Below, in pieces: positions 31,101-37,100 of a DNA stretch of 64,000 nt. Position numbers: made by a program. The DNA lies in the NCBI GenBank assembly GCA_963846575.1, contig CAWJWJ010000001.1, positions 928,001-992,000 of the forward strand, written 5' to 3'. Each line of letters starts with the position of its first letter. Positions within the stretch are counted from its first letter, which is position 1. Source of the DNA: an uncultured Nitrospiraceae bacterium. Its GTDB lineage: Bacteria > Nitrospirota > Nitrospiria > Nitrospirales > Nitrospiraceae.

Positions 31101-34100
31101 GGTGGTCCCGGCGTTTGATCTCTTCCAGTTTCTGCAGATGTGCATCCAGCTCTTTTTGAGTGGGGAATGAGGTGCCGTAAATTCGCTGCAACATCGGATT
31201 GCGTTCATCGCCACGCCAATAGGCTCCCCCCGTCGAGAGAAGCTTGAATGCCCCGACATGGCCGGTTGTGGGGAGGTGCGGTCCGCGGCAGAGATCAACA
31301 AACTCCCCCTGGCTGTAGAGTGAGATGGGCGAGTGGTCGTCGAATCCCTGGATCAATTCAACCTTGTACGCTTCGCCGCGATTCTGGAAAAACTTGATGG
31401 CGTCCGGCTTGGAGAGTTCAGTTCTGCTGACGAGCAGGCTGCGTTTCATAATTTCTTTGGCGCGTGCTTCGATCTTCTCCAGGTCCTCGGGAGTAAACGG
31501 GCGCTCGAATGCGAAGTCATAATAAAAGCCTTCATCGAGGGCGGGGCCGATCGTGAGTTGAGCGGTCGGGAACACTTCCTTCACGGCCTGCGCCATGATG
31601 TGAGTGCTGCTGTGACGATAGACATCTCGCCCTTCAGGTGATTCAAAGGTCAAGGGTTCGACAGTTGCGTCAGATTCCAAGGGACGCGACAGATCGACCG
31701 CCTCGCCGTTGACCTTGGCGGCAAGGACCTTGGGGTCAAGGCGACCTTTTGCCGGCGTCAGCGCCTCGCGGACGGTGCATCCTGCTGGGACCTGTATGCG
31801 AGTTCCGTCAGGAAGGGTAATGTGAATGAACTGTGAGGTCACTCCGTCTATCCTACAAAAAAATACAACATCGCGCCGACTACCGTGCTACTCGCGGTAG
31901 TCAGATCACGAGTTAGTTCGATCGCGAACAAAAATGGTAGGCGCGGACGGTCTTGAACCGTCGACCTCTACCGTGTCAAGGTAGCGCTCTCCCCCTGAGC
32001 TACGCGCCTATCGCCCGGCGATGCTAATACAGCGTTGCCAGGGGTGTCAAGGAAACGAGGTGGTGAGACAGGCTTTTCCTCAGGGTCAAGGAAGGAAAAG
32101 GCCGCCTTGAGCTCACCTTATTTCTTTAGTCGAAAGCCCGGGAGCTATTTGACGGCCGCCTTGAGTTCCTTGCCCGCCGAGAATTTCGGAATGCGGGCGG
32201 CAGGAATCTTCAAGGCTTCCCCGGTGCGGGGATTGCGCCCCATTCTGGCTTTCCGTTTGGAAATCGTGAATGTGCCAAAATTGACCAATGTCACGCGTTT
32301 GCCCTTTTTCAATGACGTGGTGACCGCGCCGGTGAAAGCCTCCAGGGCAACCGTCGCGGCAACCTTGGTGATTCCGGCACTATTTGCCATTTTCGCAATC
32401 AATTCTTCCTTGGTCATTTGTTACCCTCCGTTGGTGGTTGGCGACCTATCGATGTGCGGGGCTTGCTGGCTGTCTGATCCCGGTGAGGTGCTGATGGGGG
32501 CCAATTGGACAGGGCCTAGTTGGCCCGCGCTCGTTTGAGCGGAATCCGCAGATCCAAAATCTTTTTCCTGAGCGTGTTCCGATTCAGGCCGAGAAGCTCT
32601 GCGGCTTGAATTTGATTTCCCTTGGTCTCCCGCAAGGTCAATAAGATCAAGGGTCGCTCGACTGCGGCGATCAGCATCGGATGAAGGTTTCTTCCTGATC
32701 CGTTCCGCATGCCTTTGACGAAATCACCGACCTTATGTTCCAGATAGGATTCCAGACACAACGTCTGCTCCGCTCCGTTGGGCGTCGCCGAGTCAAGTTT
32801 GGGCGGCTTGACGCCATGTAGAAGGGAGGCGGCTCGTTTTAGAGCTCCCCGAGACCCTACCAACACGAGGGTCTGGGCAGGATCAATTCCAGCGAACAGT
32901 TTTCCAATTTCTGAGGAAGAGTGCCCTTTGGATTCCACAATGATGGCATCGCAACCGCGTTTGGCAAAGTCCTTTGGCAACGACAGTCCATCCTGGCCGA
33001 GCGTGATGGCCTGCTCGCCGAAGAGGCCCTTATAGTGAGCCTGGACCTCGCTGTCCGCGCTAAGCAATAGAATATTAAATGTTGATGAACGAAGCGGCAT
33101 GAAGGCACCGACGAAGAAGAGGGCGGGATTATTGCTCAGGCCCTAGGTGATGTCAATCAGGAAATTCCGCAGCGGGCGCAAAACCGCCTCTGTCGGGCAA
33201 TTCCGTCTCGCCAGGTCTCGGAGCGATATCGACTTCAGAAGTTCACCGGGCTCATCCCATGGCTCGCCTTTCAATAGAGAGTTCTCCCCGTTCTCGTCAT
33301 GAGTCATACAGTCCGGCTGATGCAAGTGCTCTTTTTTGAGGCCTCGACGCGGTGCAGAGGGATCGAAATCATCAAACGCCGGAAGGGCCGTCCTTGACAG
33401 CAACGGCTGGGGCACTGTATACAGTTTCATGAATCCGCATCGGAATACTCATAAATGAAGGTTAGTCTCCGAGCTACTTACGGAATCATTGCTGCGGTTG
33501 ACCTTGCGTTACACCACGAGGAACAACCAGTCTGTGCCAAGTCGATTGCCAAGCGTCAATCAATTCCCTCTCGATTTCTCGAGCAGGTTCTGCACGCTAT
33601 GAAAAAGGCCGGCGTGGTCACGAGCCAGCGGGGAGCCCAGGGTGGATATGTGTTGAGCCGGAAACCCTCGGAGGTGTCCGTCGCGGACATTCTGGATGCT
33701 TTGGAGGGACCACTTTTGATAAACAATGGGGCCGGTTCCGTGAAGTCCGCTTCCCGAGGTGCCAAACAGGAGGCTCTGTTGGCGCATATCTGGGATCGGG
33801 TCAAACGTGCGGAGCTGAGTGTTTTGTCTGAGGTGACTGTTGAAGAACTGGCCAATCGTCAACGCGCACTCGAGGCACAACACACGTTGATGTACCACAT
33901 CTGATAACCACGATGATCATGTGCAGACAAATTACCCTCAACCGACGAGGTCCTCATCATGAGTCCTAACAGCGTGGCTCTCCGTCCGGCTATCAAGACG
34001 GAGCCCATTCCAGCCCATATCGTTGAGGAAATCGAGACCTTTGAAGCGGAAGCGCAACGTGTCCTCGGCGGTGATCTCTCTAACGATATCTTCAAACCGT

Positions 34101-37100
34101 TCCGGTTGCAGTACGGCATTTACGGTCAGCGGCAGTCCGGTGTGCAGATGGTGCGGATTAAGATTCCCTTCGGAGGCTTGACCGGGAATCAGTTGCGCCA
34201 AGTGGCAGAGCTCGCCGACCAATTTGCCACCGGCGTGGGCCATGTCACCACGCGCCAAGATATTCAATTGCACTTTGTCGAACTCAAGCATGTGCCAGAC
34301 ATTATGCGGCTCCTGGCTTCCGTGGGCCTGACTACCCGCGAGGCCTGCGCCAACACGGTGCGGAACGTCACGGCCTGTCATCTTGCCGGAGTCTGCCAGG
34401 GGGAAGTCTTCGATGTGACGCCCTACGCCAAGACCGTGGCTCTGCATCTGTTGCGAAACCCGCTCAACCAGAGCCTTCCACGGAAGTTTAAGATCGCCCT
34501 TTCCGGATGCCGCCAGGATTGCGCCCTTACCCCGATTCACGACATCGGCCTCCTGGCTGCGAAACGTTCGGATGGGACGATCGGGTTTCGAATGGTGGCG
34601 GGCGGCGGACTGGGATCGACCCCGCGTATCGCTCAGGTATTGAGAGAATTCACCCCGATGGAGGAATTGCTGCCCACGATCGAAGCCGTGATCAAAGTCT
34701 TCGATACACTCGGGAACCGCAAGAATCGCAACAAGGCCCGCATGAAGTTCGTCATCGAGAAACTAGGATTCGAGGAATTCAAGCGACGCTGGGAAGCCGC
34801 CTATGCAGCCATGGGATATGCGGTGCCGACGCATGAGCCGATCACGCTGCTGGAATATGCTGATGAGCCGCCGTTGATCATGCCTGTAAAAGCCCCGGTT
34901 CGCGCTGACGGAAACGAGCAAGGCAATGGATCGGCCTCGCTCAACGGGGAGGCGTCGGCTTTTCATGCCTGGAAGCGGACGAATGTGGTGCAGCAACGAC
35001 AGCCGGGTTTCGTGACAGCGGCGATTAAACTCCCCATGGGTGACCTGACCGGAGAGCAGATGTGGGCAATCGCCGATCTTGCCGAACGCTATTCCAACGG
35101 AAACATCCGGACCACGATCAATCAGAACATGGTCATCCGGTGGATCCCTGAAGGACGACTGGAAGCATTCTATGATGAACTGGTCACGCATAGCCTGGGC
35201 GATCCCGGAGCCGAACTCGTGGAGGACATCATCGCCTGCCCTGGCACCGACACCTGCGGGTTGGGAATTACCTCTTCCAAGGGAATGGCGAGGGCATTGG
35301 CGGAAGTTTTTCCAGCCGGCCAGGTGCCGGAGGATCTCAGAGATGTGAGCGTGAAAATCAGTGGTTGCCATAATTCCTGTGCCCAGCATCATATCGCTAC
35401 GATTGGCTTGCACGGGGTGGGCAAGAGGCTGGGGGAGCACACTGCGCCGCATTATGAGTTGCACCTCGGTGGACATGTCGATGGCACGCCCAAAATCGGG
35501 CAGTTAACGGTAAAACTGCCGGCAAAAAATGTTCCGGCCGCCGTGCGTCATTTGGTGGATGTCTATCGCCGCGACCGGAACAACGGCGAGAGCCTCCAAA
35601 ACTTCATCGCCCGGGTCGGCAAGGCGGCCCTGAAAGATGAACTCATTCCCTATACGATCGTGCCGCCCTACGATCAGGACCAGACCTACTATTATGACTG
35701 GGAGGGTGAGGCGGAATTTGTGCTGGAAGATCTGGGGCCCGGCGAATGTGCCGGCGGCGCATTGGAAATGATCGACGATCGCATGTTGGAGGCCGATCAG
35801 GAACTCTACCAGGCGAAACTGCTCGTCGAAAAACATCAATATGCGCTGTCGGTCAATAAATCATATCGTGCCGTCTTGGCTGCGGCCAAGGCCTTGCTGG
35901 TAACCGAGGGCATCGATCCCGCGACGGATGCCGAGACATTTCAGGAGTTCGATCTGCGGCTCGCCACCAAAGGCATCGTGCCTGGGTCATATAAAAATCT
36001 CGGGGCGCAAGTTGGTGATCTTGGGTCCAAGGATGCGACAGCCGCGGCGGCCGCGGAGAAAATGACGTTCGCAAAGCAGTTCCTTGCGGTCTGCCGGGCG
36101 GCCACGGAACAATTGGGCAAGGATCTCAAGCTGGCGCAACCCAAGGAGGAGGCCGTGGCTCCCGCTCCGAAATCGTCTCCGGCCCCTGCCGCCGCAGCTC
36201 AGGCGCCCGTGTACGATCTGCGTGGGGTCGCCTGTCCGATGAACTACGTGAAGACGAAGCTGAAGCTGGAAATGATGGACAATGGTGACCAGCTCGAAGT
36301 GTGGCTGGATGCCGGAGAACCCATTCGGAATGTGCCGATGAGTTTGCGGAACGACGGACACAAGATCCTCAATGAGGGGCCACTGGAGCCTGAAGCCAAA
36401 CACTTTAAGATTCTTGTGGAAAAGGTAGAGGGGTAGCAATTGGTGGAAGCGACAGGTACGAACCAGTCTCCTGTGCGTCCGAGCGACACCGCGCTCAAGG
36501 CGATCAGCGATTCATTTGAATCGAAGCAGCCATGGGAGGTGCTGGAGTATGCGGTCAAGACCTATCCTCAGCGAATCATTCTAGCCTGCAGTTTTGGGGC
36601 GGAAGATGTGGCGCTGGTGGACATGCTGCATCGCATCGACCCTCACGCGCCGCTCTTTTATTTGGATACCGATTTCCTGTTTCCCGAAACGATCGACGTG
36701 CGCGACCGTATTGTCGCGCGTTACGGGTTGAAGCCGGCGCAGGTGATTCAAATGAAGTCGCTGCTGACACCGGATCAGCAGGCCGTCCAATACGGCGCCT
36801 CGCTGTGGGCGAGCAAGCCTGACCAGTGCTGCGAATTGAGGAAACTCGAGCCGCTCAACCGCATTCTGGCGAACTATTCCGCCTGGATCACCGGGATCAG
36901 GCGAGATCAGGCTCCGACGCGGGCCAATGCAGGTCTCATTGAATGGGATAAGAAATTCAACCTGATCAAAGTCAATCCGCTGGCCCGCTGGACCAGTGAA
37001 GAAGTCTGGATGTATCTCCAGCTTCACGAAGTGCCATATAACGCCTTGCATGACCGCAACTATCCCAGCATCGGCTGTACGCATTGCACAGCGCCCGTCC

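Follow-up and report, generated by a model that had tools for sequence, protein, structure and literature searches.

What does a sulfite reductase do with a sulfur-carrier domain of its own? This question is raised by a gene at positions 33959..36436 (plus strand) of the 64,000-nucleotide window of an uncultured Nitrospiraceae genome analysed here, a single open reading frame of 825 aa that starts with ATG, preceded by a GAGG 8 nt upstream, and ends with TAG. Pfam finds NIR_SIR (3.2e-60, best at residues 131-279) and NIR_SIR_ferr (6.1e-39) in two stretches each, followed by HEPN at residues 608-656 (E 8.1e-6, 26.4 bits, cut-off 22) and TusA at residues 752-822 (E 6.2e-15, 55.2 bits, cut-off 28.6), which reproduces the domain set and ranges of the initial annotation with slightly different E-values. 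The protein comprises a catalytic module of two NIR_SIR_ferr plus NIR_SIR repeats (residues 1-565, 33959..35653), a connecting segment recognized by conserved columns in our alignment A1 (residues 566-598, 35654..35752), a helical domain of HEPN fold identified by Pfam and Foldseek (residues 599-730, 35753..36148), an Ala/Pro-rich disordered linker apparent from pLDDT and sequence variability (residues 731-745, 36149..36193) and a TusA domain assigned by Pfam and fold match (residues 746-825, 36194..36433), all on the plus strand. The AlphaFold2 model of the whole fusion reached a mean pLDDT of 87.5 and a pTM of 0.79. The architecture is that of a sirohaem/[4Fe-4S] sulfite reductase bearing a TusA carrier domain on a flexible linker.

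The identity of the substrate had to be considered, as the protein reaches none of the NCBIfam equivalog cut-offs and plant nitrite reductases are its top-scoring PDB sequences, both of which would fit a second nitrite reductase or a tail that is inert or stems from an annotation artefact. The closest fold to the core is M. tuberculosis NirA (1zj8, E 2.2e-38), and in alignment A1 the cluster and sirohaem cysteines C427, C433, C470 and C474 as well as the anion-binding residues R58/R66, R135, R175, K176 and K178 are invariant in 66/66 sequences. The active-site motif reads LPRKFK in this fusion and LPRKYK in M. tuberculosis NirA, whereas tobacco nitrite reductase has LPRKWN; entries of the tobacco N226K mutant read LPRKWK and thus carry the same K-x-K as the fusion family, in which LPRK-x-K is invariant. 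Only one other NIR_SIR protein is encoded in this 99.9%-complete genome, a NirA at C2:622867-624465 adjoining cyanase and glnA, which reaches 554 bits with the model for ferredoxin-nitrite reductase and has K-x-N (LPRKCN). Because of this separate NirA, the invariant LPRK-x-K, the location in a sulfate-assimilation operon and the aprAB/sat clusters that surround the fusion in other classes of the phylum, we assign sulfite rather than nitrite as the substrate. A second nitrite reductase is contradicted by the K-x-K signature, the operon and NirA, and an inert or artefactual tail by the single open frame and by a tail kept invariant in hundreds of relatives, so that we give this possibility almost no credence. 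The fusion is the only candidate sulfite reductase of the genome and, as predicted from sequence and operon, an assimilatory sirohaem enzyme, in agreement with the initial annotation, which had also pointed to the separate NirA; its electron donor is probably ferredoxin.

The operon has the order rrf2-sir-cysH-trpD-like-cysD-cysNC, with all genes on the plus strand. It opens with an Rrf2-family regulator gene (33455..33904, Pfam Rrf2 4.1e-33), which also lies 5' of the fusion in Nitrospirales loci with enough upstream DNA, in an aprAB-type operon (L103) and in a metagenome locus (L213). The cysH gene (36440..37171; NCBIfam NF002537, 256.6 bits, cut-off 154) encodes, as read from its sequence, a CC...CxxC set and a C-terminal ECGLH; we take the former to mark APS rather than PAPS reductases and type the enzyme on this basis. 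It is followed by a TrpD-like paralogue of the phosphoribosyltransferase family (37214..38281, Pfam Glycos_transf_3), which obtains 205 bits on TIGR01245, where the canonical trpD at another place in the genome obtains 414 bits, is kept in Nitrospirales operons and stands between sir and sat in locus L107. The cysD gene (38244..39096) is split over two frames by a single inserted base near 38968, as DNA alignment to loci L022 and L008 shows, leaving an open frame of 245 aa (38244-38981) compared to 265 aa in relatives. The last gene (39173..41029; Pfam GTP_EFTU, APS_kinase at residues 458-566) encodes a CysN fused to an APS-kinase-like domain (TIGR02034, 338.3 bits, cut-off 336.1). From rrf2 to cysN, this order is kept in 64/64 Nitrospirales loci that reach cysN, out of 80 fetched.

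Directly behind the catalytic core, the connecting segment contains Y578, D580, F587 and E596 as invariant or near-invariant residues in alignment A1 and closes with a Gly-rich loop, G-P-G-E-C, whose Cys597 is encoded at 35747-35749. The loop block 591-600 has a mean pLDDT of 53 between flanking blocks of 83-96. Cys597 and the TusA cysteine, Cys759, are both invariant in 66/66 full-length sequences of 25-91% identity, and a regular-expression search found the E-C motif in 237/239 full-length relatives, a pattern of strong selection on the tail cysteines. By analogy to DsrAB/DsrC, the Cys597 loop could reach sirohaem-bound sulfur and the reaction could stop after four electrons, so that free sulfide would never be formed and S(0) would exit as a persulfide on Cys597 or as a Cys597-S-Cys759 trisulfide before passing to TusA. 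Two invariant cysteines, one on a low-confidence loop right after the core and the other on a tethered carrier, would suit such an exit, by which a persulfide would form without chemical difficulty. The core, however, is of the ordinary assimilatory type, nearest to M. tuberculosis NirA and the plant nitrite and sulfite reductases, which carry out complete six-electron reductions; moreover, a DsrC-like C-terminal arm is absent from the fusion and the genome encodes cysE and cysK. We therefore regard a DsrC-like exit as distinctly unlikely.

The helical domain matches 2hsb in Foldseek (TMt 0.78, rmsd 2.0) and also 1ufb, 1wol and 1o3u. The R-x4-6-H nuclease motif is absent from it and conservation is limited to hydrophobic residues or glycines (L646, L647, G651, F664), and judged by its sequence the domain is non-catalytic. 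The linker behind it has pLDDT values below 50 in both models and differs in sequence and length between relatives. The TusA domain folds like E. coli TusA (3lvj_C, TMt 0.81-0.83) and carries, besides D-x-G-x-P-x-x-N-V-P-x-S, the motif C759-P-M-N within G-V-A-C-P-M-N, with the Cys759 codon TGT at 36233-36235. C759, P760 and N762 are shared by 66/66 sequences of alignment A1 and a motif search found CPxN in 239/239 full-length relatives, which bears out the carrier cysteine described before; a serine replaces it in 1/21 tail sequences (P0171). The motif differs from CPXP, termed characteristic of sulfur-binding TusA proteins in the part of PMC11094781 that deals with them. The TusA domain is also similar to YeeD/TsuB of the thiosulfate uptake system (8j4c/8k1r), and TusA proteins bind sulfane sulfur and thiosulfonate in vitro, as stated in the same part of PMC11094781. 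The domain might hence act upstream of the reductase: with thiosulfate, tetrathionate, polysulfide or other persulfides as donors, it would load sulfane or thiosulfonate sulfur and present this, or sulfite split off from it, to the active site, so that more kinds of sulfur source could be used. We consider this improbable, as the neighbours of the fusion are cysDN, sat, cysH, aprAB and parts of a sulfate ABC transporter instead of thiosulfate importers, and an upstream role makes no use of the rhodanese-less E1 enzymes described below.

A database search with residues 566-825 returned 979 proteins, the best 120 of which are 68-92% identical, mostly 817-844 aa long and combine NIR_SIR with TusA, exactly as reported previously. 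In a sample of the phylum, the tail is present in 75/75 genomes of the same order (50/50, 24/24 and 1/1 in families f1, f2 and f3). The earlier description as universal in Nitrospirales therefore stands for the sampled genomes but is too narrow, since fusions with the same architecture and invariant residues occur in Nitrospinota, Chrysiogenetes, Bacteroidales, Poribacteria, Candidatus Lambdaproteobacteria and many metagenome lineages. All 80 metagenome loci (80/80) carry the fusion, at full length (772-914 aa) where the contig is long enough, and in other classes of the phylum it lies within rrf2-aprA-aprB-sir-(trpD-like)-sat clusters. The genome moreover encodes CysE (248 bits, cut-off 210.65) and a CysK equivalog (451.6 bits). 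CysE and CysK-type cysteine synthases are the classical users of free sulfide; the genome thus has this route in full, and the main flux could bypass the tail. These findings bear on the proposal that Nitrospirales avoid free sulfide in order to spare a nitrite oxidiser's haem and copper enzymes, feeding cysteine, Fe-S and molybdopterin synthesis from the carrier. The presence of the tail throughout the sampled order would fit this idea, but with cysE and cysK encoded and the identical architecture in many non-nitrifying lineages and in the aprAB/sat operons of other classes, the rationale is unsupported and we think it very improbable.

Outside Nitrospirales, the genes directly 5' of the fusion offer a further clue. 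Pfam analysis of 150 neighbouring ORFs from 19 loci revealed the order ThiS - Cys_Met_Meta_PP - ThiF - Prok-JAB, with DUF2061-cysH-cysD-cysN on the 3' side; the ThiF proteins of these metagenome loci are 262-278 aa long and lack a rhodanese hit in Pfam. Among 46 metagenome loci with 3 kb or more of upstream DNA, ThiF lies within 5 kb in 34, 32 of which also have JAB, while ThiS occurs in 29 and MetY in 23, as counted in phylogenetically non-independent loci by HMMs built from the Pfam hits in the same loci, so that the seeds belong to the counted set. The cassette is absent from 12/46 loci; in two of them (L204, L206) a second CysI-like reductase is instead encoded close by, together with a CysJ-like flavoprotein. 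The ThiS-MetY-ThiF-JAB arrangement is the sulfur-carrier neighbourhood treated in PMC1779556 (2006), there with a free SirA (= TusA): in its passages on ThiS/MoaD-JAB-E1 neighbourhoods with sulfate-assimilation genes, these 'always contain a SirA' and their E1 'always lacks' the rhodanese domain, for which free SirA/TusA is the predicted replacement. The same passages mention that some actinobacteria have ThiS fused C-terminally to sulfite reductase, and the in-cis sulfur acceptor announced as new by the initial annotation is accordingly not new in kind.

In Nitrospirales, the same HMMs found the carrier cassette beside the fusion in 0/80 loci. The present genome carries an unlinked cassette, ThiS-like - cysK - ThrC-like - MoaD-like - MoeB/ThiF - JAB, in which the ThiS-like gene overlaps cysK by 4 nt, the MoaD-like protein ends in GG and the MoeB/ThiF protein (267 aa) has a ThiF domain only. 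Single-protein searches detected JAB relatives in 0/7 genomes of family f12, though f12 carries the fusion, and weakly in 3/11 of the fusion-bearing family f16. Within the phylum, free TusA genes of the fusion's TusA clade are linked to sulfite-reductase-like and E1 genes: in 8/8 complete loci, the gene behind that of a small NIR_SIR+Fer4 protein encodes TusA, six of them CPxN, and the order hom-TusA(CPxT)-ThiF occurs in 3/5 genomes examined, each of another family. The separation of fusion and cassette in Nitrospirales, the classical cysE/cysK route, the flexible tether and the invariance of both cysteines would also agree with a regulatory or protective switch, in which free sulfide is the sole product and the two-cysteine tail tunes or gates the reductase in response to sulfur supply or redox state, as could happen through persulfidation or through a Cys597-Cys759 disulfide. 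Such a switch leaves unexplained why the fusion lies inside ThiS-MetY-ThiF-JAB cassettes with a rhodanese-less E1 in 34/46 loci and why ThiF or small reductases have free TusA genes of this clade as neighbours, and we hold it to be unlikely.

We tentatively favour, with a little less than even confidence, that the tail is a built-in sulfurtransferase feeding ThiS/MoaD thiocarboxylates. The ThiS-MetY-ThiF-JAB context without rhodanese speaks for the protein-bound handover of sulfur proposed earlier, but a six-electron reduction ending on a TusA persulfide is chemically inconsistent. Compared to sulfide plus thiol, a persulfide is more oxidised by two electrons. Fully reduced sulfide cannot load a thiol as a persulfide without an oxidant or disulfide; the reaction would have to halt at S(0), or Cys597 and Cys759 would have to cycle through a disulfide. 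We infer each chemical step, the way in which sulfur flows, the acceptor and the electron donor as follows. TusA on its tether of about 15 residues would stand in for free SirA/TusA or for the rhodanese domain of a MoeZ-type E1, and sulfur from the sirohaem site would be taken up as a Cys759 persulfide. Cys597, on the Gly-rich loop at the base of the HEPN domain, may be the partner thiol of this relay, either as the loading point beside the active site or as the resolving cysteine that frees the thiocarboxylate, with the HEPN fold as a possible spacer or scaffold. From Cys759, sulfur would pass to the adenylated C-terminus of ThiS/MoaD carriers held by the rhodanese-less ThiF/MoeB E1, and the resulting protein thiocarboxylates would supply homocysteine and cysteine via MetY-, CysK- or ThrC-like PLP enzymes.

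The fusion gene (window 33959–36436, forward strand) is a single open reading frame of 825 amino acids that starts with ATG, ends with TAG and carries a GAGG sequence 8 nt before the start codon. Pfam recognizes two NIR_SIR and two NIR_SIR_ferr domains with scores well in excess of the cut-offs, a HEPN match at residues 608–656 (26.4 bits, cut-off 22) and a TusA domain at residues 752–822 (55.2 bits, cut-off 28.6). According to Pfam and NCBIfam, a gene for an Rrf2 regulator is located 5′ of the fusion, and cysH, a TrpD-like gene, cysD and cysN joined to an APS-kinase-like domain follow on the 3′ side. 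The initial annotation had reported this fusion, and we found the same open reading frame, domains and operon again; its database search with the tail (residues 566–825) was likewise reproduced with 979 matches, the best 120 of them at 68–92% identity. That the tail occurs throughout the order was borne out by all 75 genomes of this order among 301 sampled from the phylum. The gene order rrf2-sir-cysH-trpD-like-cysD-cysN is preserved in 64 of the 64 Nitrospirales loci long enough to include cysN, the remaining 16 of the 80 fetched loci ending before this gene. Other classes of the phylum have the fusion within rrf2-aprA-aprB-sir-(trpD-like)-sat clusters or beside sat.

Several features of these operons are worth recording on their own. 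In three loci (L103, L104 and L107), AprA/AprB-like and Sat genes together with a TauE-family permease accompany the fusion under an Rrf2 regulator; this type of APS reductase is usually linked to dissimilatory metabolism. The TrpD-like paralogue (Glycos_transf_3, window 37214–38281) is a constant member of the operon in Nitrospirales and lies between sir and sat in L107, a locus of another class. A canonical trpD that scores 414 bits is present elsewhere in the genome, compared to 205 bits for the operon gene. Since both types of APS reductase release AMP, a role resembling that of a nucleotide or nucleoside phosphorylase is conceivable for the TrpD-like protein. The cysD gene (window 38244–39096) contains one extra base near 38968 relative to the close relatives L022 and L008, which shifts its final ~60 codons to another frame and results in an open reading frame of 245 instead of 265 amino acids. 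The extra base may be a genuine frameshift or have arisen by an error in sequencing or assembly; the rest of the operon is intact. Downstream of cysNC (window 41106–42820), a Mrp/NUBPL-type Fe-S carrier ATPase and a protein with two PCP_red domains are encoded. By tblastn, the former is kept in 21 and the latter in 15 of the 80 Nitrospirales loci, with both in 9, most loci being too short to judge.

The genome, 99.9% complete on two contigs (C1 and C2), encodes exactly two NIR_SIR proteins. The second one (C2:622867–624465) matches the ferredoxin-nitrite reductase model with 554 bits, and its gene adjoins those for cyanase and glutamine synthetase. The last position of the anion-binding motif LPRK-x-K/N governs the preference for sulfite or nitrite. 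The fusion reads LPRKFK at this site, as compared to LPRKCN in the genome's own NirA and LPRKWN in tobacco nitrite reductase, while LPRKYK is found in Mycobacterium tuberculosis NirA (1zj8), a ferredoxin-dependent sirohaem sulfite reductase, and LPRKWK in the tobacco entries named 'N226K mutant'. Both lysines of the signature (K176 and K178) are invariant among 66 aligned full-length relatives of 25–91% identity, and so are the arginines of the catalytic module and the cluster cysteines C427, C433, C470 and C474 (C-x5-C ... C-x3-C), which align with the motif of the PDB chains. The closest fold match of the fusion is 1zj8 (E 2.2e-38; TMt 0.79; profile match 302.7 bits); 3b0g, 5h8v and 1aop were matched as well. 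The mycobacterial enzyme, also known as SirA, has the four cluster cysteines and the LPRK-x-K motif in common with the fusion, but its sequence stops where the catalytic module does (profile position 532 of 785) and thus lacks the segment with Cys597, the HEPN domain and the TusA domain. None of the curated NCBIfam equivalog cut-offs is reached by the fusion protein (NF007126, NirA family, 284.2 versus 523; TIGR02042, sir, 127.8 versus 731.5; TIGR02041, CysI, 136 versus 756.55), which places it outside every curated family. We infer sulfite as the substrate from the operon and from the fusion being the sole NIR_SIR protein of the genome besides NirA, and the agreement of three different sulfate-activation contexts argues in the same direction. 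Hence, the enzyme is with high probability an assimilatory sulfite reductase.

The N-terminal half of the catalytic module contains a second C-x5-C ... C-x3-C set (C140, C146, C184 and C188, window 34376–34522) that mirrors the C-terminal cluster site. Its occurrence is nearly all-or-none, with all four cysteines in 27 of the 66 sequences, two or three in 6 and none in 33. This pattern suggests an extra [4Fe-4S] site in part of the family, including all aligned Nitrospira sequences. Furthermore, Cys130 (window 34346–34348), contained in the sequence TREAC, has its counterpart in the TEAC cysteine of 1zj8 (chain residue 172). The latter should correspond to Cys161, which is bonded to a tyrosine beside the sirohaem. 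This position is occupied by Cys in 16 and by Gly in 47 of the 66 family members.

An AlphaFold2 model of the fusion calculated from the 66-sequence alignment (mean pLDDT 87.5, pTM 0.79; separate model of the tail, pLDDT 86) divides the tail into several parts. A well-packed connecting segment (residues 566–590) is followed by a block with the Gly-rich loop G-P-G-E-C (residues 591–600), which is modelled at low confidence (pLDDT 53), by a helical domain (residues 599–717), by a disordered Ala/Pro linker (residues 731–745, pLDDT <50) and by the confidently modelled C-terminal TusA domain. The helical domain adopts the HEPN fold (2hsb, TMt 0.78, rmsd 2.0 over 118 columns; also 1ufb, 1wol and 1o3u). 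It has the four-helix fold of the minimal HEPN proteins AF_0298 (2hsb), TT1696 (1ufb), ST0689 (1wol) and TM0613 (1o3u), with TMt values of 0.68–0.78, but differs from them in that it has neither the R-x4-6-H motif nor conserved polar residues and is not paired with a nucleotidyltransferase. As the R-x4-6-H motif of HEPN RNases is absent from residues 599–730, the domain represents a HEPN fold and not a HEPN nuclease. Its conserved positions in the 66-sequence alignment are hydrophobic residues or glycines only, and we read it as a scaffold. A Protein Atlas look-up with residues 566–745 returned HEPN-named clusters at 0.90–0.91 next to fragment clusters with TusA/NIR_SIR, which we treat as leads only.

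Two cysteines of the tail are invariant in all 66 relatives, namely Cys759 in the TusA domain and Cys597 in the E-C loop, the latter being absent from the initial annotation. The TusA fold is confirmed by a TMt of 0.81–0.83 to E. coli TusA and consists of a two-layer alpha/beta arrangement. Like E. coli TusA (3lvj, 1dcj) and the TusA proteins of sulfur oxidisers, the fused domain possesses the cysteine at the start of helix 1 and a second motif, D...[DN]-[IV]-P. Its active-site motif reads C-P-x-N-[FY]-V-[KR]-x-K, in which the cysteine and the first proline are invariant and the last position of the CPxN core is asparagine in all 66 aligned relatives and in all 239 full-length relatives checked by motif; serine replaces the cysteine in one of 21 tail sequences. 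An excerpt of PMC11094781 calls CPXP characteristic of TusA. Because asparagine takes the place of the last proline, we file the domain as a distinct CPxN subfamily and not as canonical TusA. It further differs from E. coli and sulfur-oxidiser TusA in being fused instead of free, and no cysteine desulfurase partner is implied.

With the tail as query, a search of 1.84 billion cluster representatives (50% identity clusters) gave 1106 matches at E<=1e-3 and 379 at E<=1e-10, some of which cover just part of the tail. Among the best 150 cluster matches, 60 are full-length proteins of 735–902 amino acids with 29–64% tail identity (all but one 29–47%). Named carriers of the fusion belong to Nitrospinota, Chrysiogenetes, Bacteroidales, Poribacteria, Candidatus Lambdaproteobacteria and Nitrospiria. 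When species genomes were scanned, at least 591 confirmed stretches were obtained; by their titles, the best 80 comprise 78 Nitrospira-type records, one 'uncultured Nitrosospira sp.' and one 'uncultured bacterium', the taxonomy beyond these 80 being drawn from a few named cluster members only. The spread over named lineages and cluster matches indicates that the fusion is old and widespread and not a trait of Nitrospirales. This distribution does not support the rationale of the initial annotation, according to which a nitrite oxidiser would gain from avoiding free sulfide. Short proteins starting with MP at the beginning of the tail (P0182, P0160, P0235 and P0122) had suggested free HEPN-TusA genes. 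We rejected this possibility and treat them as fragments, since the tail always lies within a full-length reductase, where the contig allows, in 80 metagenome loci ordered by their similarity to P0182. In one family of the phylum (L100:7614–11180, reverse strand, and open frames of 1234 and 1292 amino acids in G014 and G056), the fusion resides in a much longer open frame with ~370 additional N-terminal residues without Pfam match; these are either real extensions or over-long frames in GC-rich DNA.

The most informative result is the gene context of the fusion outside Nitrospirales. A metagenome scan whose matches were sorted by similarity to a distant tail returned 80 loci, all of which carry the fusion, full-length at 772–914 amino acids wherever the contig permits. 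Pfam analysis of 150 neighbouring open reading frames from 19 of these loci revealed a recurrent upstream order of ThiS, Cys_Met_Meta_PP (MetY-like), ThiF and Prok-JAB, and a recurrent downstream order of DUF2061, cysH, cysD and cysN; parts of a sulfate ABC transporter or genes for sirohaem synthesis are often nearby. The ThiF proteins comprise 262–278 amino acids and consist of the ThiF domain alone. HMMs built from the Pfam-identified neighbours were then run over all 80 loci. Among the 46 loci with >=3 kb of upstream sequence, ThiF lies within 5 kb in 34 (32 of these also with JAB), ThiS in 29 and MetY in 23. The carrier cassette is present in 30, cysH or cysD in 21 and one or the other in 35 of the 40 loci that extend 3 kb in both directions; all these counts come from loci that are not independent and that include the seeds of the HMMs. 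The same HMMs detected the cassette near the fusion in 0 of 80 Nitrospirales loci, and this window lacks such a neighbourhood as well. The gene for the small DUF2061 membrane protein follows the fusion in L188, L192, L203, L208 and L213; it directly precedes cysH in four of these loci and sirohaem-synthesis genes and cysD in L192. Two near-identical metagenome loci (L204 and L206) combine cysD-cysN-cysH, the fusion, a CysJ-like flavoprotein and a second, CysI-like reductase, and thus bring two sulfite reductases of different types together.

Such neighbourhoods have a precedent in print. In the excerpted parts of Iyer, Burroughs and Aravind (2006; PMC1779556, Table 1, row 4e), ThiS/MoaD-JAB-E1 sulfur-assimilation neighbourhoods with SirA are described, in which the E1 'always lacks' a rhodanese domain and which 'always contain a SirA'. 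SirA was predicted there to act like a rhodanese, so that sulfur ends on ThiS/MoaD. The partners listed in row 4e are those of the fusions outside Nitrospira: ThiS, an O-acetylhomoserine-sulfhydrylase-like enzyme, a rhodanese-less E1, JAB, a PAPS-reductase-family protein, cysD/N and sulfate ABC parts. The same excerpts mention that some actinobacteria possess a sulfite reductase with a C-terminally fused ThiS. SirA is separate in those systems and ThiS is fused to the reductase, whereas here SirA/TusA itself is fused, via a HEPN fold and with a second invariant cysteine. As far as these parts of the source go, both the reductase with an in-cis sulfur acceptor, which the initial annotation had presented as new, and the relay idea had thus already appeared as predictions. 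The fusion extends this known idea and is not a new kind of system. A search of full texts returned no description of a reductase-HEPN-TusA fusion, which a 2019 review on TusA (Tanabe, Leimkuhler, Dahl) may mention.

Thiocarboxylate routes to homocysteine or cysteine operate in Wolinella succinogenes (HcyS/HcyF/HcyD/MetY) and M. tuberculosis (CysO/MoeZ/Mec/CysM), and they share with the cassettes next to the relatives' fusions, or on C2 in this genome, the small ThiS-like carrier, the adenylating E1, the JAB protease and the PLP sulfhydrylase. In the Hcy and CysO systems, free (bi)sulfide or a rhodanese domain of the E1 is taken as the sulfur donor, whereas the candidate donor here is a TusA tethered to the reductase. 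It is tempting to regard the fusion as an assimilatory sulfite reductase with a built-in equivalent of the SirA/rhodanese sulfurtransferase of the carrier-protein pathway, with Cys759 as relay and Cys597 as partner thiol, a reading that we advance tentatively and rate as slightly less than an even prospect.

The cassette of the genome under study is located on the other contig (C2:1276592–1281842) and is not linked to the fusion. It comprises a ThiS-like gene with a 4-nt overlap with a cysK equivalog, a ThrC-like gene, genes for a MoaD-like protein ending in Gly-Gly and a MoeB/ThiF of 267 amino acids without a rhodanese domain, and a JAB protease gene. In contrast to the row 4e neighbourhood excerpted from PMC1779556, the parts lie elsewhere in this genome. 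The lack of linkage in Nitrospirales, together with the about one quarter of metagenome loci that are devoid of a cassette, speaks against a built-in sulfurtransferase. The presence of cysE besides cysK, by which the classical route through free sulfide is also encoded, counts against it too. The JAB protein co-occurs with the fusion in 74 of 75 genomes of the order, but a single-query search found no relative in family f12 (0 of 7) and only weak ones in f16 (3 of 11), though both families carry the fusion, so that we do not claim a general co-occurrence across the phylum. This weak or absent co-occurrence is a further argument against the built-in sulfurtransferase, as is the CPxN motif in place of CPXP.

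Two free TusA genes are present in the genome, one being canonical (CPMP) and the other (P0360) displaying CPxN and, as judged by eye, the motifs of the fused domain. P0360 (C2:2012568–2012879, reverse strand; L002:1486–1797) comprises 103 amino acids with CPxN/NVPxS motifs and is conserved across the order. Of the 75 genomes of this order, 72 contain exactly two matches to the tail profile, and the second one is a TusA-only protein of the P0360 kind wherever both match positions were listed or fetched. Eight loci of free CPxN TusA genes were examined, i.e. this genome, six other Nitrospirales and one genome of another family. In all seven Nitrospirales loci, the gene has hemA and a ccsA-like gene in its vicinity and is preceded by one for a secreted Gly-rich protein, which belongs to no Pfam family and in which the motif A-P-C-W-x-C-x-P-Q-P is invariant. 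In the locus of the other family (L113), a small sulfite-reductase-like gene is located upstream of the free TusA. The nearby hemA and ccsA-like genes had suggested a link of P0360 to sirohaem, from which we draw no conclusion; the adjacent TP_methylase gene is RsmI-like and on the opposite strand, and the conserved upstream neighbour encodes the secreted Gly-rich protein.

A small sulfite-reductase-like protein (NIR_SIR with a Fer4 ferredoxin insert, ~310–335 amino acids) is encoded in other families of the phylum, and its gene is directly followed, with or without overlap, by one for TusA in all 8 complete loci (L142–L149, e.g. L113:6863–7861 and 6616–6873; a ninth ends at a contig edge). 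The TusA motif is CPxN in six of the eight and CPxP in two. This gene pair is the unfused counterpart of the reductase-TusA pairing. When TusA neighbours were inspected in five genomes from four other families of the phylum, the order homoserine dehydrogenase, TusA (CPxT; C-P-Y-T) and rhodanese-less ThiF was encountered in three, from three families (L174, L175 and L176); the remaining two, both of family f17, contain a CPxN TusA with neighbours lacking any Pfam match.

In the proposed relay, Cys759 would carry a persulfide and swing on its tether to the E1-bound acyl-adenylate of ThiS/MoaD, with Cys597 as the partner thiol. Since sulfide, being fully reduced, can load a thiol only if an oxidant is available, either uptake at the S(0) level or a cycle of a Cys597-Cys759 disulfide is required. 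Sulfur might be taken at the S(0) level in a DsrC-like manner, or sulfide might open the Cys597-Cys759 disulfide, which would be re-formed as the acyl-disulfide resolves and render the cycle redox-neutral. A prediction of the complex between core plus HEPN (residues 1–730) and TusA (residues 746–825) scored 0.28, with the mark at 0.32 and no controls, and is evidence neither way. We consider it improbable that sulfide is never freed at all, be it by S(0) uptake on Cys597 or by capture of nascent sulfide on the Cys597-Cys759 disulfide, with the TusA persulfide passing to ThiS/MoaD acyl-adenylates. In the S(0) version, Cys597 on the Gly-rich loop would draw sulfur from the sirohaem, as if a DsrC were built into an assimilatory enzyme. 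In the DsrAB-DsrC system, a sirohaem sulfite reductase works with a two-cysteine partner protein that carries off the sulfur. The likeness is a functional analogy only; the fusion's cysteines reside in two different domains, its core is of the assimilatory type with DsrA/B as distant matches only, and neither a DsrC-like fold nor a C-terminal two-cysteine arm was found in the tail by Pfam, PDB and fold searches.

The fusion is a real, conserved and widespread form of the enzyme and a variant of the predicted sulfur relay. Its family is large (379 clusters at E<=1e-10) and occurs in environmentally important nitrifiers, and the two invariant cysteines make the relay directly testable, which should interest sulfur biochemists considerably. 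In the textbook scheme, sulfate assimilation leads to free sulfide that diffuses to O-acetylserine sulfhydrylase. A reductase with its own sulfurtransferase would depart from this scheme. In most relatives outside Nitrospira, the fusion is situated within a cassette of ThiS, rhodanese-less E1, JAB and sulfhydrylase, which suggests that sulfur is channelled in protein-bound form from sulfite to the sulfur amino acids. If true, this would answer an open point of the thiocarboxylate pathways, namely the origin of the carrier sulfur where cysteine itself is made. Should sulfide indeed never be freed, the de novo synthesis of cysteine and homocysteine would run wholly on protein-bound sulfur from sulfite onward in many bacteria.
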